Source: Candidatus Moraniibacteriota bacterium (GTDB taxonomy: Bacteria; Patescibacteriota; Minisyncoccia; Moranbacterales; UBA2206). From it: DNA of 64,000 nucleotides. The stretch spans positions 41,828 to 105,827 of the forward strand of contig JAUXSK010000018.1 of the NCBI GenBank assembly GCA_030679995.1, written 5' to 3'. Position 1 is the stretch's first letter. The number at the start of each line of letters is the position of its first letter. Of the stretch, positions 1-60,626 are shown one piece after another. A program made the translations under genes and the position numbers. The notes under the pieces were generated by a model. The model worked only from the letters and a program-made list of their open reading frames with translations, was not told where the DNA came from and ran no database searches.

Positions 1-6
1 CACTAT

Positions 7-1137
7 TTGGAATCATTTGAAATCGACGTTCCTATGGAAAACAGATTGGTCGGCAAGCTGTTTTTCGTGCCCTATGCTGCCAGAGATGACCTACGGAGAA
101 TTTTGAAACAGGCTTTGCTCGAAAACAGGCAAAGACTTGGTAACCTCACGCTGGGTCAATGGATTCAAGAGTTTGAAAAAACCTTCAACATCCACACTCG
201 GACAAAATCAGCTCCGGTTGAATTTGTTTCCCGCCATCCGCAAGCAATCCTACTCAATCCCATCGAAAGACGGAGACTAAAAGAAATCATCCATACTTAT
301 GACTATTTGCTGGTTTCAACCCTGCCAACCACCGAGCCTGAGCTTAGTGAAATGTTAGCCAATATGCCGGACACGGAAACATCCGAAAAACAAGACGGCT
401 CCGCAAGAGCAACCTACGCTCCGGAATCCTACAGAAAAAGCTTCTCTGGAAATTCGACATCCGCAGACACAGCAATCATTCCGCTAGACGAAATTTTGAA
501 ACAATTTCCCGAAATCGGCGAACAAATCATCACTTCCAACCGTATACAAATCCTGAGCTTTCCCGAACCGGCGCGCCCGTCCATCAAAAATTGGCTGGCT
601 GATTACACGTCCATCCTGGGCAACGAACCGCACGATTCCATAGCCCGGGGCAATTATTTGTTCCATGAAAAAAATACGCAGAACCTGAGTTCAACCAACA
701 GGAACAGATTGGCTTACATCCTGAAATCCTTCGATGAAAAAACCCCAATCACGATGGACAAGTCAAGCAAACAAATAATCTTCGACGATACGAACGAAAT
801 CCCGGAACCCAGAAAAAACGATCAGAATTCTCAAAACACTTCGACGCAAAAAACGCCAACCGCCAACTACGCGCCGCAAACCAACAAAATCAGCTTTTCT
901 TCCCCGCAGAAATTATCCTTTGAAAAAATAACACCCCCTGCCAAAACCGCCACCGTTCCGGCCAACCTTCCGACTGGAAACCTCGCCAGACCGGCACAAT
1001 TCGGAAATAACCAGCCCGGCAGGATGACCAACCAGCAACCCTACCGCATCACGCCGTCCGGCAGCCGGCAACAGATTGTCGATACGAAAGCGATGCCAAG
1101 AGTGTTGCCGAAGAATGTGGTAAACCTGCGCGATTAA
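7..1137 (+). CDS. Hypothetical protein with a Pro/Gln/Thr/Asn-rich low-complexity C-terminal half. The ORF opens at the window edge with TTG, so the true start may lie upstream or at the ATG at 34.
   Basis: Long uninterrupted ORF with coding-like composition and no recognisable catalytic motif. Confidence 0.4.
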   Translation: MESFEIDVPMENRLVGKLFFVPYAARDDLRRILKQALLENRQRLGNLTLGQWIQEFEKTFNIHTRTKSAPVEFVSRHPQAILLNPIERRRLKEIIHTYDYLLVSTLPTTEPELSEMLANMPDTETSEKQDGSARATYAPESYRKSFSGNSTSADTAIIPLDEILKQFPEIGEQIITSNRIQILSFPEPARPSIKNWLADYTSILGNEPHDSIARGNYLFHEKNTQNLSSTNRNRLAYILKSFDEKTPITMDKSSKQIIFDDTNEIPEPRKNDQNSQNTSTQKTPTANYAPQTNKISFSSPQKLSFEKITPPAKTATVPANLPTGNLARPAQFGNNQPGRMTNQQPYRITPSGSRQQIVDTKAMPRVLPKNVVNLRD

Positions 1138-1178
1138 ATTCAAAATCTAAAATTACAAATTCCAAATAAATCACAATG
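1138..1178. repeat. Left arm of the AT-rich palindromic intergenic repeat (copy R1). It ends in ...CCAAATAAATCACAATG, and that ATG is the start codon of the four-helix-bundle gene.
   Basis: Direct comparison with the full copies at 2020-2147 and 2835-2974 shows the shared AAATYCARAATYYAAAATTACAARYTCCAAATAAAT..CAATG left arm. Confidence 0.7.
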
Positions 1179-1538
1179 TCCGAAATCCAAAAAACAAAAC
1201 GATACGATTTAGAGGATAGAACGTTAGAGTTTGGAAAGAGAATTTTGAGATTAGCAAAGGCCTTGCCAAAAAACACAATAAATTTCAAGTTAATTGATCA
1301 ATTTGTCCGTTCCGGCACTTCAATGGGAGCAAACTACCGAGAAGCTAATGAAACTGAAACCAAAAAAGATTTTAAATTTAGAATGAGAATATGCAGAAAA
1401 GAAGGTAAAGAGACCATTTATTGGCTATATTTAATAGCCGAAGCTAATCCAGAATTTGAAGAAAGAATAAAACCACTTTTACAAGAAACGACTGAAATCG
1501 TAAAAATATTCGCCGCCATTCTTGTAAAATGTGAATGA
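1176..1538 (+). CDS. Four-helix-bundle protein of the 23S rRNA intervening-sequence protein family, nested between the two arms of repeat copy R1.
   Basis: 120 aa, all-helical and Lys/Glu-rich. The FGKRILRL...IDQFVRSGTSMGANYREA...YWLYLI pattern is typical of the family. Assignment is by recall, without an HMM search. Confidence 0.7.
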   Translation: MSEIQKTKRYDLEDRTLEFGKRILRLAKALPKNTINFKLIDQFVRSGTSMGANYREANETETKKDFKFRMRICRKEGKETIYWLYLIAEANPEFEERIKPLLQETTEIVKIFAAILVKCE

Positions 1539-1602
1539 TTTTGATGATTTTGAATTTAATATTTATTTGGAATTTGTAATTTTGTATTTGTAATTTAAAC
1601 AT
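1539..1602. repeat. Right arm of the palindromic repeat (copy R1), ending in TATG, which supplies the start codon of the downstream gene.
   Basis: ATTTATTTGGAATTTGTAATTTTGTATTTGTAATTTAAACATATG is the inverted complement of the left arm and matches the 3' ends of R2 and R3. Confidence 0.7.
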
Positions 1603-2019
1603 ATGGGTTTATTCAATGTTCCCCAATTCATCGACATCGAAGACAAGATTGTCGGACCGCTGACCGCCAAGCAATTGGGCTGGATGGGGGCGGCCGGAGT
1701 GATCCTTTTGGTGGCCTGGAGCATCCTGGACCTCACGGCATTCATCATCGCCGCTATCCTCACCAGCATCATTTTCGGCAGCCTGGCATTCTACCGTCCC
1801 AACGGACAGCCATTGGTCTATTTCATCTTTTCCGCCATCTCTTTCGCCTTCCGTCCTAAAATATATATCTGGAAAAGGGTGGCTGACAAGAGCGTACTCG
1901 GATTCACTCCCGCCCAAAAGACGAAAGCTGAAAAAAATGCTAAAATAAAGACATTGGCACCCAAGGAAGTTTCGGAACGGAAGATAGAAGATATTTCACA
2001 TTTATTGGACAGTAAATAA
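1603..2019 (+). CDS. PrgI/VirB3-like small two-TM T4SS component.
   Basis: The N-terminal NVPQFIDIEDKIVGPLTAKQL resembles the PrgI-family VP..I..E.K..G.LT.RQ motif, followed by two hydrophobic helices. It is ~138 aa and sits immediately upstream of virB4. Confidence 0.55.
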   Translation: MGLFNVPQFIDIEDKIVGPLTAKQLGWMGAAGVILLVAWSILDLTAFIIAAILTSIIFGSLAFYRPNGQPLVYFIFSAISFAFRPKIYIWKRVADKSVLGFTPAQKTKAEKNAKIKTLAPKEVSERKIEDISHLLDSK

Positions 2020-2147
2020 ATCCAAAAATTAAAATTACAAGTTCCAAATAAATTGCAATGGCCAAAATTCAAAATTGTTTTAAATTTTGAAAGTTGAGAT
2101 TTAGAATTTATTTGATATTTGTAATTTTGAATTTGTGATTTAAGTTT
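2020..2147. repeat. Full copy (R2) of the ~130-bp AT-rich palindromic intergenic element, filling the gap exactly from stop codon to start codon.
   Basis: The inverted arms AAAATTACAAGTTCCAAATAAATTGCAATG and ATTTATTTGATATTTGTAATTTT flank a central AAAATTCAAAATTGTTTTAAATTTTGAA palindrome. A 10-codon mini-ORF begins at the CAATG. Confidence 0.75.
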
Positions 2148-2834
2148 ATGGAATCATTGCACTCGGAAAAATTAGCCACCCAGACCAGCACCTCTGCTTC
2201 CCAGCAGTTTCTTGACGTGGCCGAAATCAAGGAAGGCGTCGTAGTGCTGAAAAACGGCTCTTTTCGGGCTGTCATAGCCGTATCGGCCATCAATTTCGAT
2301 TTGAAATCCACTGACGAACAGGAAGCGATCGTTGGACAATATCAAAACTTCCTCAATTCGCTGGATTTCCCGGTCCAAATCCTCATCAGTTCCCGCAAAC
2401 TCAACGTGGACAAATATATCGGTTTCATCGAAAAAAAGGAAAAACAACAGACCAACGAGCTCCTGAAACTGCAAATTTCAGAATACAAGAATTTTATCCA
2501 CCAGCTGGTTTCCGTTTCCAATATTATGGACAAGAATTTCTATATCGTTGTGCCATTTTCCCCGATTGAAAACCAAGAAAAGAGCTTTTTGAGCAATCTT
2601 TTCAATAGCCTCAATGCCAAAAAGAACATCCTGGAAAAAAGGGAGAATTTTGAAACCTACAAAAACCAGCTCTACCAACGGATCGACCACATTTCCGCCT
2701 CGCTGTCTGGCATCGGATTGCGTATCGCCCCGCTGGACACCCAGGAACTGGTCGAATTGCTCTACCAATCCTACAATCCGAACCTTTTCGCGGAAAGCAA
2801 GCTGGGAGATGTGAGCGCAATGGAACTCAAATAG
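2148..2834 (+). CDS. VirB4 N-terminal-domain-like protein, probably the detached N-terminal part of a Gram-positive-type VirB4.
   Basis: GVVVLKNGSFRAVIAVSAINFDLKSTDEQEAIVGQYQNFLNSLDFPVQILI resembles the N-terminal 'inf.L.s.eEq...f..fL..l.fp.Qi' segment of PrgJ/TraE-type VirB4 proteins. It has no TM segment and no Walker motifs. Confidence 0.45.
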   Translation: MESLHSEKLATQTSTSASQQFLDVAEIKEGVVVLKNGSFRAVIAVSAINFDLKSTDEQEAIVGQYQNFLNSLDFPVQILISSRKLNVDKYIGFIEKKEKQQTNELLKLQISEYKNFIHQLVSVSNIMDKNFYIVVPFSPIENQEKSFLSNLFNSLNAKKNILEKRENFETYKNQLYQRIDHISASLSGIGLRIAPLDTQELVELLYQSYNPNLFAESKLGDVSAMELK

Positions 2835-2974
2835 AAATCCAGAATCCAAAATTACAAGCTCCAAATAAATTACAATGTTCAAAATTAAAAAATTCAAAAC
2901 CGTTTTGAATTTTGAAAATTGTAATTTAAATTTTATTTGATATTTGTGATTTTGAATTTGTGATTTAAAATATT
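2835..2974. repeat. Full copy (R3) of the palindromic intergenic element, lying between the two virB4-like ORFs.
   Basis: Same arms and central palindrome as R2. It ends in TATTATG, which provides the start codon of the 604-aa virB4 ORF. Confidence 0.75.
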
Positions 2975-4789
2975 ATGGATTTATTCAACAAAAAAGGTAA
3001 AACCGAACAGGACCAGGTGATTCTTTCTGAGAAATATTACCAGGAAGGCGTCGCGAAACTGCAAGACCTGATCGCTCCGGCCGCCATAAAAATCCTACCC
3101 CAATCCATCCGGCTGGGGGAAACTTTGGCTAAAACGATTTTTGTCATCTCTTATCCGAGATATCTGCATAGTAATTGGTTTTCACCCATCATCAACATCG
3201 ATATGCCGATCGACATCTCGATGTTCGTACATCCCGTCGAAACTTATGACATCTTGAAAACCCTCAAAAAAAGCGCGACCCAGGTCCAATCGCAACTGCA
3301 CATCGAGCAGGAGAAAGGACTGATCCGCGACCCGACCCTGGAAACGGCCATCCAAGACATCGAGGAATTACGGGACAAACTCCAACAAGGTACGGAAAAA
3401 TTCTTCCGCTTCGGCCTATATATCACGGTTTACGGCCAAGATGAGAAAGATTTGGAAAAAGCCGCGAAAAACATCGAATCGATTTTGGAAGCCCAGCTGG
3501 TCTATGTGAAGCCGGCTATCTTCAAAACCGAACAAGGTTTCAATTCCACTATCCCGCTGGCCAATGATGAATTGAACATCGGAACCAATATGAATTCCGC
3601 CCCGCTTTCCACCACGTTTCCCTTCGTTTCTTCCAGCCTCTCCAATGACGAAGGCATCCTCTATGGCATCAACCGCCATAATAACAGCTTGATCTTATTC
3701 GACCGTTTCAAAATGGAAAACGGCAATATGGTGGTCTTCGCCAAATCCGGCGCGGGTAAAAGTTACACCGTCAAACTGGAAGTGCTGCGATCCCTAATGG
3801 TCGGCACCGATGTCATCATTATCGACCCGGAAAACGAATATAAACATTTGTGCGACACGGTAGGCGGATCTTTCGTCAAAATTTCTTTGAATTCCACCAA
3901 CCATCTCAACCCTTTCGATTTGCCGAAAATCGCCGAAGATGAGGATCCGGAAGACATTTTGCGCAACAACATCGCCAGCCTTCTGGGACTCCTGCATCTG
4001 ATGTTGGGCAACATCACTCCGGAAGAGGATTCCATCCTTGACCGCGCGGTGCACGAAACCTATGCCATCCGCGACATCACCGGACAAACCGATTTTAACA
4101 CCCTGGCCAAAGAAGCCTATCCGACTATGTCCGATCTTTACCAGGTTTTGCGCAATATGGAAGGAGCCGAAGATTTGGCCATCCGTTTGGAAAAATACAC
4201 GGAAGGGATTTTTGCCGGCTTTCTCAATAACACCACCAACATCAAAGTGGACAACGCGCTGGTAGTTTTCAATATCCGCGATATGGAAGAAGAATTGCGC
4301 CCCCTCGCTATGTATATCGTCTTGCAATTCATTTGGAACGAGATGCGCACCAATCTTAAAAAAAGGATCGTTCTGGTGGATGAGGCTTGGGTGATGATGA
4401 AATATGACGATGCCGCCTCATTCCTGTTCGGAATTGCGAAACGCTGCCGAAAATATTATACTGGACTCACGACGATCACCCAGGATGTGAACGATTTCCT
4501 TTCTTCGCGCTATGGCAAACCGATCGTGACCAACTCATCCATCCAGCTCCTGCTCAAGCAATCTCCTGCGGCTGTCGATATGATCGCGGAAACGTTCTAT
4601 TTGACCGACCAGGAAAAATTTCTGCTGCTTGAAAGCAATGTCGGAGAAGGGATTTTTTTCGCCGGCACCAAGCATGTGGCCATCAAAGTCATCGCTTCCT
4701 ACAGCGAAGACCAGATCATAACGACCGACCCGGCCCAAATGTTGGAAATCGAACAGGCTAAAAGGGAGTTTGATGATGAGGAAGAATAA
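2975..4789 (+). CDS. virB4: VirB4/TraC/PrgJ-family conjugative-transfer (T4SS) ATPase.
   Basis: Walker A MVVFAKSGAGKSYTVK (nt 3749-3763), Walker B RIVLVDEAWVMM, the ITQDVNDF motif and an N-proximal ISYPRYLHSNWFSPII segment all match VirB4-family signatures. Confidence 0.8.
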   Translation: MDLFNKKGKTEQDQVILSEKYYQEGVAKLQDLIAPAAIKILPQSIRLGETLAKTIFVISYPRYLHSNWFSPIINIDMPIDISMFVHPVETYDILKTLKKSATQVQSQLHIEQEKGLIRDPTLETAIQDIEELRDKLQQGTEKFFRFGLYITVYGQDEKDLEKAAKNIESILEAQLVYVKPAIFKTEQGFNSTIPLANDELNIGTNMNSAPLSTTFPFVSSSLSNDEGILYGINRHNNSLILFDRFKMENGNMVVFAKSGAGKSYTVKLEVLRSLMVGTDVIIIDPENEYKHLCDTVGGSFVKISLNSTNHLNPFDLPKIAEDEDPEDILRNNIASLLGLLHLMLGNITPEEDSILDRAVHETYAIRDITGQTDFNTLAKEAYPTMSDLYQVLRNMEGAEDLAIRLEKYTEGIFAGFLNNTTNIKVDNALVVFNIRDMEEELRPLAMYIVLQFIWNEMRTNLKKRIVLVDEAWVMMKYDDAASFLFGIAKRCRKYYTGLTTITQDVNDFLSSRYGKPIVTNSSIQLLLKQSPAAVDMIAETFYLTDQEKFLLLESNVGEGIFFAGTKHVAIKVIASYSEDQIITTDPAQMLEIEQAKREFDDEEE

Positions 4790-4943
4790 GTTTTTATGAT
4801 TTCAAGTTTCAATCTGCCAGCTGGTAGACCAAATTATTCCAAATCAAATCCAAAGATCAAATTAAAAAATAACTTTTGATATATAGGCTTTGAGCTTGAT
4901 TTGGAATAATTTGAGCCTTGAATAATTTGGATTTTAAAAAATT

Positions 4944-5471
4944 ATGTCCGACGAACAACAAAATCATGCGAATAACCTCAAAATGGCTCGCATCGGTTCT
5001 CTGAAAAATTCAGCCCAGAACATTAGAAAAAACGTCAAAGCCGCGGTTAATGTCGTTTCGCTTACGGCCTACCTCGAACCCTTTACGGACTGGCTGTTCG
5101 GCATCGCCCTTATCCTGGCCATCATCAAAGATATTTTTGATTTAGTCAACAACGCCCTTATTGCCGCTTTCGGCATCGGGATACCCCTGATCGTGGTTTT
5201 TACCGCCATCGTCTCACTCGCCATCGGATTCATAATGCTACTGACAGGCTCTTCCGGCAAAAGGAAAACCGCCAAGAAAATCGCCCAGGGCCTGCTCAAA
5301 CGATTTCTCCTGCTGGTTGGCGCCTCAGCAATCGAAGCGGTTCCCGCAATCAGCTTGTTGCCACTCGAATCACTCGTAGTCATCATCATATTTTGGCTGA
5401 CACTGGTTGAAAGGAAAAAAAACGCGGAAGCGCAAAAAGAACAAGCGGCAGCGATGGCCGCAGCCGCTTAA
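4944..5471 (+). CDS. Small multi-TM membrane protein, possibly a VirB6-like or accessory T4SS membrane component.
   Basis: Three to four hydrophobic helices, a basic N-terminus and an Ala-rich C-terminus. It follows virB4 on the same strand. Confidence 0.45.
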   Translation: MSDEQQNHANNLKMARIGSLKNSAQNIRKNVKAAVNVVSLTAYLEPFTDWLFGIALILAIIKDIFDLVNNALIAAFGIGIPLIVVFTAIVSLAIGFIMLLTGSSGKRKTAKKIAQGLLKRFLLLVGASAIEAVPAISLLPLESLVVIIIFWLTLVERKKNAEAQKEQAAAMAAAA

Positions 5472-5483
5472 AACAAAGTTTTT

Positions 5484-6143
5484 ATGGACACAAAACAAAA
5501 ATCCAGCCCCCTATCCCATTGGAGAACGGAATTGATCAGCTCCGCGATTGTTTTGTTGTGCTTGTTTTTAGCCGTTTATTTCCCAGCCCAAGGAACATTG
5601 CAACTTTTCAGTAACACACTATTCTTTCTCTTTTTATTGCCGGTCTTGTATATAAAAATTATTTTAAAGCAAAATTTGACTGATTTTGGCTTTAATACGC
5701 TAAATATATCTGCTGGTTTATTGTGGTCGCTTGCGATGTTAGCCTCTTCTTTCCTGATTATTTTTTTCTTAATGCATTTTTATAATTTTGAACAAAAATA
5801 TTTTCTTCCAACTTATCTAGCGCAAAATTTCTGGGTCTTTCTGTTCTATGAGCTGGTTCTGGCAAATTTCTTATTTTTTATACAAGGATTTTTCTTCAGG
5901 GGATTTGTTCTTTTTTCATTCGCGAAAAAATTGAATTTCTTCGCCCCCCTTATCCAATTTTTGATTTTCACATTGTTTCTCGCGGCTACAAATTCTATCA
6001 ATTGGAAGGCAGCTCCTTCCATAATACTATCCCTGACTGGCGGCATCGTGGCTTACAAAAGCAAATCATTCATCTATCCATATTTGACCAGTTTATTGTT
6101 TATGATTATCCTAGATGCCTATATAATTTATCTGTTCAAATAA
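5484..6143 (+). CDS. Phe-rich polytopic membrane protein, with at best a degenerate CPBP/Abi-like fold.
   Basis: About six TM helices. FIQGFFFRGF weakly recalls CPBP motif 1, but motifs 2 and 3 (the His residues) are absent. Confidence 0.4.
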   Translation: MDTKQKSSPLSHWRTELISSAIVLLCLFLAVYFPAQGTLQLFSNTLFFLFLLPVLYIKIILKQNLTDFGFNTLNISAGLLWSLAMLASSFLIIFFLMHFYNFEQKYFLPTYLAQNFWVFLFYELVLANFLFFIQGFFFRGFVLFSFAKKLNFFAPLIQFLIFTLFLAATNSINWKAAPSIILSLTGGIVAYKSKSFIYPYLTSLLFMIILDAYIIYLFK

Positions 6144-6149
6144 TTTTTT

Positions 6150-8822
6150 ATGAACATCCTACAAAAATCACTCGCTGCATCTCTTATTTCACTTATTATT
6201 TTCTCATCGGGAGCGCCGGCTATTCATGCCGATTCATTTTCGCTAGACCCGATTTCAGCAGCTGTTACCGATAAGGCTATGGGCGACATAATGGATTATT
6301 TCGGAATTAATCAGCAAGAGCTGAAAAACAATATCCAAACTATGAATGTTTCCCGCCAGAAAAAAATCCCGCCCCAAGTTTCCATCACTTTTACGCCGGC
6401 CAGCCCAGTGCCGGGAGAAAAAATAACCGCCACTGCCACTCCGACGTATTTTATGAATGATCCGTCCCAAATCTACTATACTTGGCTTCTGAAACGGTCC
6501 GGCAAAGATGGCGGCGCCGAAGATTACAAAGTCGCCGCTATGCGCATTATCGCCAGCGGTGATTTCGAGTATGAGCAGGAATCATATGCGGACGACGGTG
6601 AGAAAAGCGCGGGCGATTCCGATACTGGCGATTCTGATGGCTACTATGCCTTTTTCGGCGGCCAAGATCAGAAAGGCAAAAAGTCGCGATGTTTTGCCAA
6701 TGACATTTCTTCCGGCAATGATTATGAAATCACCTGCAAACACGCTTTCCCCACTAGTAGTCCGGGAGAAGTCGGCGACGGAGAATTCGGATTGGAAGAA
6801 GAAAAGTTTTGGCACACCGATCCAAAATCCAACGACACGGCCAACAGCGGGACTATGGATGAGGCTGCCGTGGTCGGACTCGGCAAAACCACTTTCAGTT
6901 GGATTTATGCCCCTGGTGATAAAGTCGGGGTCATCGTAGAGGGTATTTCGGTCGATCCGACCAGCTATGCCGATTCATCTTACAAAACGATGTGGGCTAT
7001 GCCCAAAAATACCGAGGACAATTGCAATAATGTCGATCTTGATTCATTGCCGGAAAACCGCACCGACACCCCTATCATAACTAAAATAGATTATACCGAC
7101 ACGGATACCGACGGCTATGAAGAATCTTATACTAAAGTCACCGCGACCACATCCTACAGTTATGCTACTGGTGATTATATCGTGAAAACCGGTGAATCTC
7201 CCGGCATCCAGATCCTAAAAACTACCAAAACTACGGTTACGACGCAAGATTGCATCTTGCCGCCGGCATCTTTGCTTGAACCATCCCCGGTTGAAATATG
7301 CGGCGATGCCACTACGCCAGCACACTGGCCAATTTCATCCTCGACTTCCAATCCTCGCTTCGTCACTGCCTCTGACGGATCCCTTGATTCAAGCACCGAT
7401 TTCAATAATTGTCTTGAGGATAATTTGGTCGACCCAGCACAAGGAACTTCCAATAAAAAATTGGATGTTTCACTTTCCTATTTGCCAGATACTCCGATGA
7501 ATGACCCTGCCGGAGATAATGCCGATGAGCTGGTTATCCAATCATCTATCTTGAACGCTGGAAATAAAGATTTTATCTATTACGATTGGAGCGTTTCCCT
7601 AGGCTCGTCCATTTCAGCCGATGATTGGATTGCGCTTGACGCCAACACCAAAAAACAAACCGGACTGGATCAGACCGCCGGAATCGGATTGAAATCATTA
7701 AAAATGAATTTGAATTTTGACAAACCGGAAGCGTTCTACGCCAAGATAACCTTGCGGGCAAAAGAAACTTCCTTTGAGAATTTGCAAAAAGAAGGCGTCG
7801 CCACCATCATAGTCCCTATTTACAATGCGCAAAACAAAATCGAGGTCTTCCCAACCAACGTTTCGGCCGACTTGGATATAACCCTCGATGTCGCACCCGA
7901 AGCCAAGCGTTGTGACAGCGGAATTGAAAAAACACTTTGCCCGATTGTAAAAAATGAGATCGTAGGATTAAAGACCGATATCGATCCAGATGATTATAAT
8001 TTAGTCTGGACGCTTAATGGAGAACCACTTTCATCGGCAAATCCGAACGCCGCTACGGCCTATTTCCCGGTACTGCAAGAAAAGGGAACCAAATACACGG
8101 TCAATTTAAACGCTTCCCATAAAACCTCCCAAGAAAAAATAACCCTCACGAAAACTTTTATAGTAGCGGATCCGGAAATCCATATATCCGCCGTCAATGA
8201 AAGCGCCGCCAACTCGACTTGCCTGCCGATCCTCCTGGGATATTATGTCGATCCGATAAATAAAAATCCTAATCCGGCGCCGGCAAGCGATGACTCTTTA
8301 TGGCCTGACTATAGCGAAGATTCTTTTGAAGCCTTGCAAGGCAAGGTAATCAAGTTAAAAACAACATCGAACGCGCTTTCTCCCAGCCAACCGTCTTGGA
8401 TTATCGACGGGGTAATCGTGACAACCGATAACGCGGCTTCCCTCGGCGCCACACTCAATGCCGACGGAACGCTCAGTTTTTCTGCCGATAAATCAACAGG
8501 CGCGACTTATTCGGTAGGCGTCGAAACGCTCTACACCCAAACTAATCTGGTCAAAAAAGCCCTGTATGGAAAATGGGGCATCCCCCTGACGGATTTCTAT
8601 GAAAAGCGCATCAGCAAATCAATTACGATCAAGGTAGCCGATCAGATCGATGTCAGCTCCGCCCTAGCCGCCCGAACGCAGGATAAAAAAATTCTAGCCA
8701 GCCTCTTTTCATCCATACCGGCCTATGTCAATTTCCTTTTCCGAATCATCCTTACTCTCATCTTAATCTTGTTTTCCACCGGATTGCTGTTTTCATTTTT
8801 TCCGAAACAAAACCAAGCCTAG
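6150..8822 (+). CDS. Large (890 aa) secreted surface protein with an N-terminal signal peptide and a C-terminal TM anchor. It is a putative T4SS-associated adhesin or surface factor.
   Basis: Signal-like MNILQKSLAASLISLIIFSSGAPAIHA, a Thr/Asp/Ser-rich body and a C-terminal hydrophobic helix ILTLILILFSTGLLFSFF. Confidence 0.55.
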   Translation: MNILQKSLAASLISLIIFSSGAPAIHADSFSLDPISAAVTDKAMGDIMDYFGINQQELKNNIQTMNVSRQKKIPPQVSITFTPASPVPGEKITATATPTYFMNDPSQIYYTWLLKRSGKDGGAEDYKVAAMRIIASGDFEYEQESYADDGEKSAGDSDTGDSDGYYAFFGGQDQKGKKSRCFANDISSGNDYEITCKHAFPTSSPGEVGDGEFGLEEEKFWHTDPKSNDTANSGTMDEAAVVGLGKTTFSWIYAPGDKVGVIVEGISVDPTSYADSSYKTMWAMPKNTEDNCNNVDLDSLPENRTDTPIITKIDYTDTDTDGYEESYTKVTATTSYSYATGDYIVKTGESPGIQILKTTKTTVTTQDCILPPASLLEPSPVEICGDATTPAHWPISSSTSNPRFVTASDGSLDSSTDFNNCLEDNLVDPAQGTSNKKLDVSLSYLPDTPMNDPAGDNADELVIQSSILNAGNKDFIYYDWSVSLGSSISADDWIALDANTKKQTGLDQTAGIGLKSLKMNLNFDKPEAFYAKITLRAKETSFENLQKEGVATIIVPIYNAQNKIEVFPTNVSADLDITLDVAPEAKRCDSGIEKTLCPIVKNEIVGLKTDIDPDDYNLVWTLNGEPLSSANPNAATAYFPVLQEKGTKYTVNLNASHKTSQEKITLTKTFIVADPEIHISAVNESAANSTCLPILLGYYVDPINKNPNPAPASDDSLWPDYSEDSFEALQGKVIKLKTTSNALSPSQPSWIIDGVIVTTDNAASLGATLNADGTLSFSADKSTGATYSVGVETLYTQTNLVKKALYGKWGIPLTDFYEKRISKSITIKVADQIDVSSALAARTQDKKILASLFSSIPAYVNFLFRIILTLILILFSTGLLFSFFPKQNQA

Positions 8823-8855
8823 ACTATATTTGCCAAAAATACTAATATATCAAAT

Positions 8856-9821
8856 ATGTATAAAAAATTAACCGCCCTTCTTTTAGCCGTATTTTGTCTT
8901 GCGCCGACCTTGGTGCTCGCAGGCGCCTTCGATTACAGGCCGATGGAAATGATTCCCGGCTTTGAAGCTGAAACCGTCGGCAATTTCTACACCTATATCG
9001 GAGCGGTCTATAAATTCGGCCTATGGACCGTAGGGATTTGCGCGATGTTTATGATCGGCATCGGCGGCTATATGTACATCATATCCGCCGGCAACAGTTC
9101 CAGTATGACCAAAGCAAAGGGAGTGATTATCGACGCTATCGCCGGTTTGATCCTGGCGCTGGTTTCCTTTCTGATCCTATACGAAATCAATCCTAATTTA
9201 GTCAAATTAGGCGGCAACGACATCGGCGGCAATACCGCTTTGACTGAAAAGATTATCACCTCAAAAACATTAACCAAGGGCTGTGAAAACTACGCCAATG
9301 ATTTTGAATCCGCTTCCGGAGGCGATAAAAACCTGAAATGCCTACTTATCGGCATCGCCAATGCGGAAAGCAATTGCAATCCTAGTGCGATCAGTAAACA
9401 TAACGCCTGCGGAATGATGCAAATCTTACCGGCAACTGCCGGGCAATCCTGTGAGGAACTGTTATCCAATCCGTCCGCCAGCATCCAAAAAGCCGCTTCG
9501 ATCATCGCTTCCTCCCGCAACAGTATTCCGTCATCTTCCGGCTTTTCACTGGGAACAAGTTATGCCCTCGCTAAAACTACGGTAAGCTATGGCGATTATA
9601 CCTATGACACCGGCAATGACGACTTGATCGCCGCTTATAACGCCGGCTCCGGAAAAATTGCCGCTACGCCGGGCAAAGCCGGTCCATTCGTAGTTTCAAC
9701 GGACTGCCCGAGCCCGACCACTCCCGCCTGGCAATGCCATATCAATCCGGGCGGATTTTCCGAAACCCAAAAATATGTTATGCGCGTCCAATCGTTCCAA
9801 GCGGCTTGCTTGGCTAAATAA
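8856..9821 (+). CDS. Secreted lytic transglycosylase (SLT domain, VirB1-like) with an N-terminal VirB2/TrbC-like hydrophobic hairpin.
   Basis: SLT catalytic signature AESNCNPSAISKHNACGMMQI (E-S...GLMQ type). The N-terminal signal peptide is followed by two hydrophobic helices separated by SAGNSSSMTKAKG. Confidence 0.6.
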   Translation: MYKKLTALLLAVFCLAPTLVLAGAFDYRPMEMIPGFEAETVGNFYTYIGAVYKFGLWTVGICAMFMIGIGGYMYIISAGNSSSMTKAKGVIIDAIAGLILALVSFLILYEINPNLVKLGGNDIGGNTALTEKIITSKTLTKGCENYANDFESASGGDKNLKCLLIGIANAESNCNPSAISKHNACGMMQILPATAGQSCEELLSNPSASIQKAASIIASSRNSIPSSSGFSLGTSYALAKTTVSYGDYTYDTGNDDLIAAYNAGSGKIAATPGKAGPFVVSTDCPSPTTPAWQCHINPGGFSETQKYVMRVQSFQAACLAK

Positions 9822-38195: not shown

Positions 38196-38285
38196 ATGTT
38201 TAAATTTTTAAACATTCAGCATTTAAAATTGATTTAAAATTTCAAATTTATAAATTTAAAATTATAGGCTTTAGCCTCATTGTAG
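38150..38285. repeat. AT-rich repeat/palindrome element related to the intergenic repeat family.
   Basis: TTTTAAATTTTCAATTTTAAATTTAAAATGAAATCCCAAATGTTTAAATTTTTAAACAT... containing the perfect palindrome ATGTTTAAATTTTTAAACAT. Confidence 0.5.
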
Positions 38286-38291
38286 CATTGC

Positions 38292-38320
38292 TTGACAAAA
38301 AATAAAAGGTGTGCTAAGAT
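38292..38320 (+). promoter_or_regulatory. Near-consensus sigma70-type promoter driving the orphan plus-strand transcript.
   Basis: TTGACA (38292-38297), a 17-nt spacer, then TGcTAAGAT extended -10 (38312-38320). Confidence 0.55.
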
Positions 38321-38326
38321 GCCTAG

Positions 38327-38558
38327 TCATATGATTTTGGCTGAAAAACGCCTTTCGTATGGCTAGCAGTAAGCTGTAGGCAATTGGTGATTTCTATCTT
38401 TTGTCATCAATTTTGGGAACTTTTTATCAAGATATGGGCGGATTGGTGCAAGCTGGGCCGTGCCTCGATACTGTTCCTTCCCCGAGGGCCTAGCTCTTGG
38501 GACTTGCCTGCAGATTACTGATTGATAGAGAAAAACTCGGTTCATACCGGGTTTTTTG
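38327..38558 (+). ncRNA. Candidate ~230-nt small RNA of unknown identity, with its own promoter and intrinsic terminator and no plus-strand ORF.
   Basis: Bounded by the promoter above and a terminator ACTCGGTTCATACCGGGTTTTTTG (38534-38557). It is GC-richer than its surroundings and contains GGGCGGATTGGTGCAAGCTGGGCCGTGCCTCG...CCCCGAGGGCCTAGCTC pairing potential. It lacks the 5' GGGG / 3' CCA tmRNA signatures and the RNase P P4 motifs. Confidence 0.3.
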
Positions 38559-38577
38559 TTTGGATAAAAAAGAAAAG

Positions 38578-38612
38578 GCGGGAGCTCCAGTGTGATGGAA
38601 TTCCCGCCCGGG
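38578..38612 (-). terminator. Rho-independent terminator of the GGDEF gene.
   Basis: The minus strand reads GGGCGGGAATTCCATCACACTGGAGCTCCCGCC followed by TTTTCTTTTTT. Confidence 0.55.
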
Positions 38613-38618
38613 CAAAAG

Positions 38619-44356: not shown

Positions 44357-44854
44357 AAATTAGGCAAGTCCCTGGCTTTAGAGATTGGAAACGAGCTCCA
44401 AGGTCCAGCCTTGTCTTCAATAGCGCGATCTCAAAGTCCGATTCTGGAAGGCGCCTTCGTGTTTTGTCTGGAAGGCGATTTGGGCGCCGGAAAAACCACG
44501 TTCACGCAGGGGGTATTGAAAGGATTGGGAGCTGAGGGGCCATACACGAGCCCGACCTTTCTCATAATGAAAGAATATAATTTGCAAGATACAAAATACA
44601 AGAAACAAGAAACAAAAAAATTCAAAATTCAAAATTCAAAATTCAAAATTCGGAACATATATCATATTGACGCGTATCGGGTTGGAGCTGAAGATGTTTT
44701 GAGTCTAGGCTGGGAAGAGATGATCGCCGATCCGAAAAACGTCGTAATCGTGGAATGGCCGGAAAAAATCGCACGGATATTACCGGAAAATTCAATCAGG
44801 ATAAAATTTGAGTGGCTGGATGAGAATCAGAGGAAAATAACCTTTGGAAAATAA
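44306..44854 (+). CDS. tsaE: tRNA threonylcarbamoyladenosine biosynthesis ATPase TsaE (YjeE), carrying an in-frame ~20-aa Lys-rich insertion derived from a repeat element.
   Basis: Walker A LEGDLGAGKTTFTQG, then SPTFLIMKEY and IYHIDAYRV. The insertion NLQDTKYKKQETKKFKIQNSKFKIRN lies between the conserved Y and H. The start may be at 44315. Confidence 0.75.
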   Translation: MYVMEKEFITGNFKETQKLGKSLALEIGNELQGPALSSIARSQSPILEGAFVFCLEGDLGAGKTTFTQGVLKGLGAEGPYTSPTFLIMKEYNLQDTKYKKQETKKFKIQNSKFKIRNIYHIDAYRVGAEDVLSLGWEEMIADPKNVVIVEWPEKIARILPENSIRIKFEWLDENQRKITFGK

Positions 44855-44886
44855 AAAATCTTACCGTTGCGGTAAGATTTTTTTAA
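44855..44886. terminator. Bidirectional terminator between tsaE and the CDF transporter gene.
   Basis: AAAAAATCTTACCGTTGCGGTAAGATTTTTTT. Confidence 0.7.
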
Positions 44887-44889
44887 GTG

Positions 44890-57409: not shown

Positions 57410-57532
57410 ACTGAAGACGTATGGATCAACTCTCCTGCAGGGGGGTTGATTTTTTATATCCGGGATGGTATAGTGCAAAACTCCCGTTCTTTCATTAAAT
57501 TTAAAATCAATCGGCAAAAGGAGGTGGTTTAG

Positions 57533-58183
57533 GTGGTTGCAATCGTCAGGAGGGGCTGGGTAGATGTCGATGTCTTCAAGTTTGCCCGTAAGAATGATAA
57601 ACCTTGGACGCTTTTGGCTTTGAGATACGCCAAGTTATATTTCCAGGGGATGTATCGCAAGGACGGCCGGGATGCTTTCGTGCATGCGTACAAAGTCGCC
57701 CAAATCTTGATTTACTTCGGTGTTTGGGATGACGAGGTCATAGCTGCGGGTATTTTGCATGATATCCTGGAAGACGTATCTTATGCGGCTTTGGATGTTT
57801 TGAGTCAAGTTTTTCCGCAAAGAACGGTCTCGCTGGTTGTCATTGTGACAAAATTCGAAGGGGTTATATTAGCTGAGTATTTCCATAATATCAGCCTTAA
57901 TCCTTTCACTGTCCTGATCAAGTTGGCAGACAGGTTACATAACTTGCGCAATATGATCAAAAATCTGGATAAGAAACATTGTTTCAATCTGGAAAAGCTT
58001 CGCGAGCAATCACAGGAGACGAACGATTTCGTTGTCCGCCTGCCGTATGCGGCGATTGTCCGTGAGAAAACCAAGGCATCAGGATGCCCGCCGGAATATT
58101 TTTCCGCTATGGCGGCTATGGCAGGTGAATTGCGTGAAGCGGTCCATCTGGCTAAAGTTATTTTGGCTGGGCTGGTCATCTGA
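57533..58183 (+). CDS. HD-domain protein resembling the RelA/SpoT-type (p)ppGpp hydrolase domain (a small alarmone hydrolase-like protein).
   Basis: HAYKVAQILIYFGVWDDEVIAAGILHDILEDV matches the H...A..L.....D...I.AALLHDvvED HD motif. There is no synthetase domain. Confidence 0.55.
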   Translation: MVAIVRRGWVDVDVFKFARKNDKPWTLLALRYAKLYFQGMYRKDGRDAFVHAYKVAQILIYFGVWDDEVIAAGILHDILEDVSYAALDVLSQVFPQRTVSLVVIVTKFEGVILAEYFHNISLNPFTVLIKLADRLHNLRNMIKNLDKKHCFNLEKLREQSQETNDFVVRLPYAAIVREKTKASGCPPEYFSAMAAMAGELREAVHLAKVILAGLVI

Positions 58184-58238: not shown

Positions 58239-59573
58239 ATGAAAAGATTGGTTCCGCAAAAATTGAAAAATATTTATCATCTATTCCAAGCCATCTTGGC
58301 GAATATTCGGTATGGCTTTCCGACTAGGAAGATGAAAACCATCGGCATCACCGGCACGGACGGCAAAACTACGACCTGTCAGATGGTAGCTAAGATTTTG
58401 GAAGAGGCTGGTAAGAAAGTGGCGATGGCTTCCACCATAAATTTCCGCATCAACGGCGAGGAAGAAAAAAACCTTTCCCACTTCACGACTTTGTCGGCTT
58501 TCGCGGTGCAGAAATTCGCGAGGCGGGCGGTGGACGCGGGCTGTGAATATCTGGTTTTGGAAACTTCTTCGCATTCACTCGATCAATACCGGGTGTGGGG
58601 AGTGGATTATAAAACGGCGGTCATTACTAACGTGACGCGCGAGCATTTGGACTATCACCAGACGATGGAAAAATACCGCCAAGCCAAGGCGAGGCTTTTT
58701 AAAAAAGTCCAAGTAGCAATCGTGAATCTGGATATGGAAAAACCGGAGGAATATTTCGACCGTGGCGCGGGTAACATTTTGGGATATGGCTTGAAAATCC
58801 AAAATCCAAAATTACAAATTTCAAATAAATGCAAAATTCAAAATCAAAAATTCAAAACCGTCATTGCTCAAAATATTGAATTAGGAATTGATAAATCAGC
58901 TTTTTCAGTCGGTGATCAAAAGTTTATTTTAAATTTGATCGGGGATTTCAATATTGAAAACGCGCTGGCGGCTATCAGCGTCGGGGTTTCGGAAAATATC
59001 GATCTGGCGACTTGCGCCAGGGCCTTGGAGAAAATCACCGGCGTGCCGGGACGGATGGAATATGTGCCGAATGGCAGGGGATTGAATATTCTGGTGGATT
59101 TCGCTTTGACGCCGATCGCTCTGGAAAAACTATACTCGGTGCTTTTGAAAATAAAAAAACCGGAAGCGCGGATCATTGCGGTTTTTGGATCGTGCGGGGA
59201 ACGCGATCGCGGCAAGCGGCCGATTATGGGCGCAGTCGTTTCCAAATATGCTGATTTCGTGATTGTGACCGATGACGAGCCTTATCATGAAAATCCAGTC
59301 CAGATAATAAATGAAATATTTTATGGCGTTATCGGACAGAGGATGGCAGACGAGATCCCGAATCAAGATCCAAACAAAAAAATAGAAGGTGAAAATTGCT
59401 GGAGAATAACGGGCAGAAGGGAAGCGATCAGAAAGGCTTTGGAAATAGCCAAACCCGAGGATATTATCGCCGTCACCGGCATGGGAGCGGAAGAATCGAT
59501 GATAGTGGGGGATGAAAAAATCCCGTGGAACGACCGGCAGGTGATTTTGGAGGAGTTAAAAAAGATAAAATAA
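58239..59573 (+). CDS. murE: Mur ligase family protein (MurE-like UDP-MurNAc-tripeptide ligase) with an in-frame ~24-aa repeat-derived insertion.
   Basis: GITGTDGKTTT P-loop and the VLETSSHSL...VITNVTREHLDYH central domain. The start is called at MKRLVPQKL rather than the ORF-track start at 58032, which overlaps the upstream gene. The insertion LKIQNPKLQISNKCKIQNQKFKTV lies at nt ~58792-58863. Confidence 0.8.
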   Translation: MKRLVPQKLKNIYHLFQAILANIRYGFPTRKMKTIGITGTDGKTTTCQMVAKILEEAGKKVAMASTINFRINGEEEKNLSHFTTLSAFAVQKFARRAVDAGCEYLVLETSSHSLDQYRVWGVDYKTAVITNVTREHLDYHQTMEKYRQAKARLFKKVQVAIVNLDMEKPEEYFDRGAGNILGYGLKIQNPKLQISNKCKIQNQKFKTVIAQNIELGIDKSAFSVGDQKFILNLIGDFNIENALAAISVGVSENIDLATCARALEKITGVPGRMEYVPNGRGLNILVDFALTPIALEKLYSVLLKIKKPEARIIAVFGSCGERDRGKRPIMGAVVSKYADFVIVTDDEPYHENPVQIINEIFYGVIGQRMADEIPNQDPNKKIEGENCWRITGRREAIRKALEIAKPEDIIAVTGMGAEESMIVGDEKIPWNDRQVILEELKKIK

Positions 59574-60064: not shown

Positions 60065-60332
60065 AATATATTTATTAGGATATTAACTGTCTGAATTATA
60101 GCACATCCGCTTGACGGATATGCTATCTGGATATATAGTGGGGATATGTCGAATATGTCACAAAGAAATTTCTGGTTTTATTTTTACGGCTTTAGTCAGA
60201 GGTCGTTTCTTTGTGGATTTTAGGGAATAGTCAAAAATCACAAGAAAACGACCTCTGAAGAAGGCCGTTTTTTATTTCGGTTTTTTGTCAAATCAATGGC
60301 ACAATGTGCTAAAACTAAAGAGAGGAGATATT

Positions 60333-60512
60333 ATGTCCGGTCAAGAAGCTTGCAGTAAAAAAAATGATGCTGGCGTGCAGAGTCACGAGCAGCACGAAGA
60401 AAATGGAAGGAGCAAGGTACAAAGTTATCCGACAGCGGTGTTGGATAGCTGTGGGAAACCAACCGGCAGAATCGTGCAGGTGGTTCCCGGCGTCAATGAT
60501 GCCGATTTTTAA
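60333..60512 (+). CDS. Small hypothetical protein (59 aa).
   Basis: Strong SD AGAGGAGA 6 nt upstream of the ATG at 60333. Confidence 0.3.
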   Translation: MSGQEACSKKNDAGVQSHEQHEENGRSKVQSYPTAVLDSCGKPTGRIVQVVPGVNDADF

Positions 60513-60626
60513 AAAACTGCCCTTTAGGGTCAAAGGTGGCGTTGGGAGAATTTTCTCTTGGCGCCGCTTTTATTTTTCCCCGAAAAATGCTAAAATACTG
60601 ATATTAATTACTTAAGTGAAAACATT

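Follow-up and report, generated by a model that had tools for sequence, protein, structure and literature searches.

The VirB4 ATPase of the type IV secretion system (T4SS) considered here is encoded by two adjacent genes, and this is very probably the conserved and normal arrangement in Patescibacteria and not the result of an accident to a single gene. The DNA is a 64,000-nucleotide (nt) stretch from a Candidatus Moraniibacteriota bacterium (NCBI GenBank assembly GCA_030679995.1, contig JAUXSK010000018.1, positions 41,828 to 105,827 of the forward strand), the whole of which is referred to below as the window, with coordinates counted from its first letter. On its + strand one open reading frame (ORF) of 228 amino acids (aa), ORF1 (2148-2834, stop codon TAG at 2832-2834), encodes a TrsD-like protein that is a free-standing VirB4 N-terminal domain, and a second of 604 aa, ORF2 (2975-4789), encodes a VirB4-type ATPase without its first N-terminal domain. 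Between them sits R3 (2834-2974), an AT-rich imperfect hairpin repeat. A first-pass annotation, made from the letters alone, had the coordinates and lengths of both ORFs exactly, and saw in the pair a virB4 split by insertion of the repeat. What follows points to a pre-existing gap between two established genes, with R3 as a later lodger in it.

Taken together the two products make one VirB4. On the NCBIfam VirB4_plasma model (894 positions) ORF1 occupies positions 95-271 and ORF2 274-893, and on the NCBIfam CD1110 VirB4 model (752 positions) the corresponding stretches are 11-124 and 178-734; ORF2 lacks a complete N-terminal domain by either measure (start at 274/894 and 178/752), and ORF1 is the missing part. 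The same tiling is found against a naturally fused relative of 797 aa, P0254, whose residues 5-231 are matched by residues 15-226 of ORF1 (41% identity, BLASTP) and whose residues 226-793 are matched by residues 25-594 of ORF2 (52% identity, BLASTP). In P0254 and in TrwK, the VirB4 of R388, this is one polypeptide whereas in the window it is two, which span the whole protein with neither gap nor overlap. ORF2 is the ATPase part: it scores 375.8 bits against NF045971 conju_CD1110 (curated cut-off 325) and 102.8 bits against PF19044 (cut-off 25.8), has Pfam matches to P-loop_TraG, AAA_10, DUF87, TraC_F_IV and CagE_TrbE_VirB, contains ISYPRYLHSNWFSPII, a Walker A motif (GAGKS) and a Walker B motif (LVDEAW), and over residues 220-583 matches the solved VirB4 C-terminal domain, PDB 4AG5 (E 1.8e-51).

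For the smaller protein, comparison of ORF1 with PDB sequences produced nothing meaningful, and a fold search took its place. Its AlphaFold2 model (predicted local distance difference test, pLDDT, 82) has as its 14 best Foldseek matches in the PDB exclusively TrwK/VirB4 of R388, with probability 1.00 and a template modelling score normalised by query length (TMq) of 0.33-0.52. The P0254 model also matches TrwK, in an end-to-end alignment (TM 0.62), and its confidence drops to pLDDT 59-60 at residues 211-230, the very region that corresponds to the break point. The first-pass annotation was thus correct in identifying the 228-aa protein as a homologue of the VirB4 N-terminus and the 604-aa protein as the remainder with the Walker A/B core; the 228-aa protein does not align to a different family instead, full-length VirB4 homologues do have a counterpart of it, and function as two polypeptides, one of the options then offered, is the best reading.

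The conservation of the split is extensive. A search with ORF1 gave 2533 homologues, the best 120 of which, those looked at in detail, are 67-92% identical to it and all 226-244 aa long, and among the best 150 representatives of 50%-identity clusters only P0254 is full-length, the other 149 being not so. Genomes, one per species, were scanned with an alignment of the closer homologues as query (a diverse alignment has no conserved stretch of 7-10 residues); a relative was present in 482 species, the best 80 being Moranbacteria. In these 80 the length of the ORF1 counterpart is constant at 226-232 aa, and in every one of the 77 species with both genes it ends in its own stop codon and the ATPase is a separate ORF, adjoined by the TrsD-like gene in the same orientation. 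The unsplit gene that was to be sought in orthologous loci is accordingly missing from all 77.

This bears directly on the proposal that an intact virB4 was recently cut by R3, with the repeat supplying the start codon for the second half. The location of R3 exactly between the ORFs would suit such an event, as would the existence of fused versions of ~790 aa elsewhere in Patescibacteria, but those versions come from another clade, with no more than 41-52% identity, and the survey of species in practice refutes an insertion as the cause, leaving it very improbable. The spacers, measured from the stop to the homology-inferred start, range from 1 to 499 nt in the 77 loci; 38 species have no more than 40 nt, which leaves no room there for a hairpin, 4 have 41-69 nt and 35 have 70-499 nt. 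Where the spacers of relatives are longer their hairpins are of unrelated sequence (AT-rich AAATTT, ACGAAT and GC-rich types), and the staphylococcal plasmid pSK41, to which we return below, has the same break. Nor is the ATG a gift of the repeat: homology to R3 stops at 2968 and the ORF2 start codon is at 2975, and the N-terminus M(F)DLFNKKG is kept in the loci L001, L003 and L040, whose spacers hold a different hairpin or none, which marks the ATG as native. Of the earlier suggestion the position of R3 between the two ORFs stands, and its role as a source of a new ATG does not.

Decay is no better served. A pseudogenising virB4 would account for the two-ORF appearance, and for that alone, but both ORFs are under strong purifying selection. 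In comparisons with four relatives ORF1 has a ratio of nonsynonymous to synonymous substitution (dN/dS) of 0.03-0.10 and ORF2 one of 0.03-0.05, with dS ranging from 0.29 to 3.2, and thus the locus is not decaying, contrary to one of the early suggestions. The near invariance of ORF1 length in the 80 species and the intact Walker motifs argue in the same direction, as does the essentiality of a homologue in Ca. Southlakia epibionticum recorded in the relevant passages of PMC12102498, and that the genes are on their way out is scarcely credible.

A third possibility is that the hairpin is excised or bypassed at the RNA level, so that a single fused polypeptide is restored. The spacer does fold into a long hairpin that sets the stop next to the start, and another copy of the repeat, R1, resembles the rRNA intervening sequences that RNase III excises. 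Against this, ORF1 has its own stop codon ahead of the repeat, ORF1 and ORF2 occupy frames 0 and 2, and each of the spacer's three frames contains 3-5 stop codons. RNase III moreover cuts RNA apart and does not ligate it. In the 77 loci the relative frame of the two genes is 0 in 14, 1 in 32 and 2 in 31, over the full range of spacer lengths. The stops, the frames and the variability of the relatives together exclude read-through, frameshifting, or excision and fusion, as a conserved mechanism, and RNA-level repair of any kind, which the first-pass annotation had entertained, is highly improbable.

Fusion in the DNA itself is another matter. P0254 as query brought up fused proteins of 775-807 aa in more than 115 clusters at 90% identity, 59-100% identical to P0254, many of them labelled Candidatus Colwellbacteria and all with PF26593 plus ATPase domains. 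Both split and fused architectures therefore exist in Patescibacteria, each consistent inside its clade, and the sizeable Colwellbacteria-type clade, in which both parts are joined, directly shows the TrsD-like proteins to be a VirB4 N-terminal domain. That clade, as well as the break point that the Patescibacteria split shares with TrsD|TraE of pSK41, is an addition to the published picture.

A caution on the fused clade concerns public scaffolds from metagenome-assembled genomes. In two of these, L085 (1213-1667) and L086 (1171-2052), runs of N lie inside the fused virB4 and gene callers report a 600-aa 'split' ATPase. Two 600-aa proteins of that clade, P0289 and P0385, were considered as independent fissions and rejected as artefacts of N runs within the gene; such artefacts could pass for independent fissions.

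The closest precedent for the two-gene state comes from Staphylococcus. In the annotated order of pSK41 a small hypothetical gene is followed by trsD (227 aa), a 14-nt spacer and a 672-aa DUF87 ATPase (TraE). As in the window, the TrsD/TraD and TrsE/TraE proteins of pGO1/pSK41 (MPF-FATA subclass) come with a VirB3-like gene, a gene of TrsD size and a VirB4 ATPase in turn, and pSK41 TrsD, like ORF1 with its single extra residue, is directly upstream of a VirB4 lacking the first domain. ORF2 is collinear with pSK41 TraE (E 3e-49) from residue 4, which corresponds to TraE residue 5, and so the break point is shared with TrsD|TraE. In an hhalign comparison (E 1.5e-5, probability 80%) the family profile of ORF1 aligns to residues 32-217 of pSK41 TrsD. 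There are also differences. The N-terminal proteins are only remotely similar (19% identity, 30 bits versus a cut-off of 200), the operon in the window is chromosomal, with no relaxase or coupling-protein gene seen in 1-9821, and the counterpart of the 14-nt spacer is a 140-nt hairpin.

For Patescibacteria the two-gene TrsD-like plus VirB4 architecture is already known and is ordinary. Quinonero-Coronel et al. 2025 (PMC12102498), in the passages that treat TrsD, describe it as remotely homologous to the VirB4 N-terminus, and its homologues as more abundant in Patescibacteria than any other T4SS component, with 2,272 in 2,221 assemblies, 1,664 of them adjoining VirB4; one is essential in Ca. 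Southlakia epibionticum, for whose system Wang et al. 2023 is cited there. The Patescibacteria T4SS in those passages, that of S. epibionticum included, have VirB4, TrsD, PrgI/VirB3 and VirB2-like pilins, as does the window, in which the TrsD-like gene likewise adjoins VirB4 and a VirB6 homologue was not identified in the operon. Text searches of the same paper returned no mention of a fused TrsD-VirB4 clade or of hairpins in the spacer.

The same passages assign no function to TrsD and place its Gracilibacteria homologues mostly away from VirB4, and this would be congenial to a protein of VirB4 N-terminal descent that has since come to act apart from the ATPase, perhaps as a scaffold or regulator in its own right. 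Such emancipation is unlikely here, given the strict adjacency and common orientation in 77/77 loci, the retention of the same domain in the fused forms, and a fold that still matches the VirB4 N-terminal domain.

A two-subunit ATPase is most likely, to judge from that adjacency and orientation, the location of the break in a linker, and the fused relatives. VirB4 is in all likelihood encoded as two polypeptides, by way of an ancient gene fission or, equally possibly, by never having been fused. The free-standing 228-aa TrsD-like protein is the first N-terminal domain of ~200 residues, and the 604-aa protein combines the other half of the N-terminal region with the RecA-type ATPase domain, the break being at a domain linker in the position shared with TrsD|TrsE (TraD|TraE) of pGO1/pSK41. 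In the R388 structures the first N-terminal domain of VirB4 is on the membrane side with VirB3. By analogy with its role there, the 228-aa protein most likely supplies this domain in trans, and at the membrane the two products, together with PrgI/VirB3, may join up again through non-covalent contacts.

Several considerations weigh against this account. The 30.4 bits of ORF1 against the NCBIfam TrsD/TraD model (NF041427, positions 26-180/201, E 3.1e-7) do not reach, and are far under, the curated cut-off of 200 bits, so the relationship to TrsD is remote. The local Pfam scan gave no PF26593 match for ORF1 (the copy used may lack the model), the sole match being a sub-threshold one to DUF6128; the TraC-like label PF26593 is carried, as a precomputed annotation, by all of the best 120 ORF1 homologues as well as by the fused proteins, and its extension to ORF1 relies on the labels of homologues 92% identical to it. 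Binding of the ORF1 product to that of ORF2 is argued by analogy. Finally, the direction of change, fission in the one lineage or fusion in the Colwellbacteria-type clade, could equally have been either. For annotators there is a trap to be avoided: what looks in Patescibacteria like a 'split virB4' is the usual pair of TrsD-like protein and VirB4, neither a pseudogene nor the victim of an insertion.

If R3 did not make the gap, what is it doing there? R3 belongs to the direct repeat families D1-D3 and the inverted families I1-I6, and is one of a three-copy family that comprises, besides itself, R1 (arms at 1135-1192 and 1519-1602) and R2 (2017-2147). The copies have arms of ~60 nt in common, which form imperfect hairpins (z -5.6 to -6.2), the arms of R1 pairing in the minimum free energy (MFE) fold; the MFE is -36 kcal/mol (z -6.2) for R2 and -33.5 kcal/mol (z -5.6) for R3, which is 140 nt with a GC content of 0.19 and fills 2835-2974. 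RNAalifold on the three copies gave 45 pairs, 3 of them with two-sided changes, and three sequences being too few, no selection on structure is claimed. The upstream stop codon (TAA 1135-1137, TAA 2017-2019 and TAG 2832-2834 for R1, R2 and R3) is where each copy begins; at its other end is ATTTAA, 4-7 nt short of the next ATG, with a right-end TAA at 1596-1598, 2141-2143 and 2966-2968. One may speculate from these TAA(TAG)...TAA bounds, in three copies only, that insertion was into stop codons with a 3-base-pair (bp) target duplication. R3 itself extends from the upstream stop to ~7 nt before the native ATG, and its folding would bring stop and start close together, which suggests that it is probably tolerated and has no function in the split. 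A scan of 1000-5600, uninformative for AT-rich hairpins, showed no intrinsic terminator in R1-R3 and 14 promoter-like sites versus 8.0 +/- 2.6 expected.

R3 is common only to the window and its closest relative, L005 (JAUXSI010000020.1; 98% ORF1 identity, dS 0.29), which has it at the same site with 96% identity; in other relatives it is absent or replaced. The L005 contig ends at 4765, 78 nt into its R3 copy, which suggests that repeats of this type break short-read assemblies. In L005 the R1 site holds another four-helix-bundle ORF, with arms that also differ (3050-3427), and such a difference in cargo and arms alongside 98% ORF1 identity implies fast turnover. R3 is in all likelihood one of several rapidly exchanged hairpin elements that settle in existing operon spacers.

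R1 (1135-1602) is the most elaborate of them. Within its arms is an ORF (1176-1538) for a 120-aa four-helix bundle that matches TIGR02436 (E 1.8e-23) and PF05635 23S_rRNA_IVP (E 1.1e-17), with a GC content of 0.33 against 0.45-0.49 in neighbouring genes. Coxiella burnetii has an intervening sequence (IVS) of 428 nt, in which a 28-bp terminal stem goes with an S23p ORF and which RNase III cuts (PMC4990558). R1, at 468 nt, is like such 23S rRNA elements in its terminal inverted arms, long stem, PF05635/TIGR02436 ORF and low GC content, but it is not in a 23S rRNA helix; it is in the spacer of an mRNA operon between two protein-coding genes, that for a 376-aa product and prgI, and R2 and R3 unlike those elements have no ORF. 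Nor is R1 alone. Spacers of the T4SS operon in Moranbacteria carry cargo of either the four-helix-bundle (TIGR02436) or the GxxExxY/PDDEXK_3 (TIGR04256) family: L001 (4941-5327) has a GxxExxY ORF inside another hairpin, L040 (4758-5153) has one inside a stem of 496 nt that separates the TrsD-like gene from virB4, and further cargo ORFs are in L007, L016, L024, L030, L041 and L042. The loci fetched gave 10 cargo-ORF matches, or 9 distinct loci once L001 and L006, identical in sequence, are counted as one, all on the operon strand and all with complementary flanking arms.

Since all 10 matches are on the operon strand, co-transcription is suggested, and it is tempting to regard the spacer hairpins as family-diverse mobile IVS-like elements that inhabit the spacers between stop and start codons in an operon that is highly expressed and, in a cultivated relative, essential, are co-transcribed with it and are cut by RNase III, thereby segmenting the mRNA between the trsD-like gene and virB4. 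This is offered tentatively, as a possibility against which we would still bet. Literature searches for IVS-type cargo proteins in mRNA spacers gave nothing relevant, and these hairpins with their cargo are the only part of the present story that might repay further work.

The surroundings are those expected of the pair. Over the + strand of 1-9821, the extent of the operon survey, the genes form what is in all likelihood the standard T4SS operon of Patescibacteria (class Moranbacteria). It opens with the 376-aa ORF (7-1137), after which R1 occupies the spacer before the gene for a 138-aa PrgI/VirB3-like small membrane protein (1603-2019; Pfam PF12666 PrgI, E 2.7e-11), with R2 then filling the gap from prgI to the TrsD-like gene. 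PrgI, TrsD-like protein and VirB4 are a conserved trio with PrgI first, a position that is kept in L001, L003 and L004. Downstream of virB4 a hairpin unrelated to the R family (4790-4943, inverted repeat I12; MFE -39.6 kcal/mol, z -4.4) precedes the gene for a 175-aa T4SS pilin-like (VirB2-like) membrane protein (4944-5471), whose match to PF18895 T4SS_pilin is weak and under the cut-off (E 2.9e-4) and whose position is kept in relatives. Two ORFs of 219 and 890 aa without family match separate it from a gene for a VirB1-like SLT lytic transglycosylase whose N-terminus is pilin-like (8856-9821; PF01464 SLT, E 1.6e-13). ORF2 is therefore in a T4SS neighbourhood, with PrgI upstream and the pilin-like and SLT genes downstream, and the order is matched in relatives.

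Elsewhere in the window a 69-nt stretch at 58794-58861, in frame within a MurE-like ligase gene (peptide KIQNPKLQISNKCKIQNQKFK), shares 85% identity with the left R3 arm; simple in-frame insertion was considered as its origin and rejected, as there are no extra residues in comparison with solved MurE. Across the full window an Rfam gathering scan found no family and no rRNA, and a tRNA scan found none. Four long spacers between crudely called ORFs (38196-38618, 44357-44889, 57410-58031 and 60065-60626; 423-622 nt), likewise without tRNA or Rfam family, have unusually stable predicted folds at -0.26 to -0.34 kcal/mol per nt, and the third of them overlaps a 216-aa ORF (57533-58183) and may be coding.

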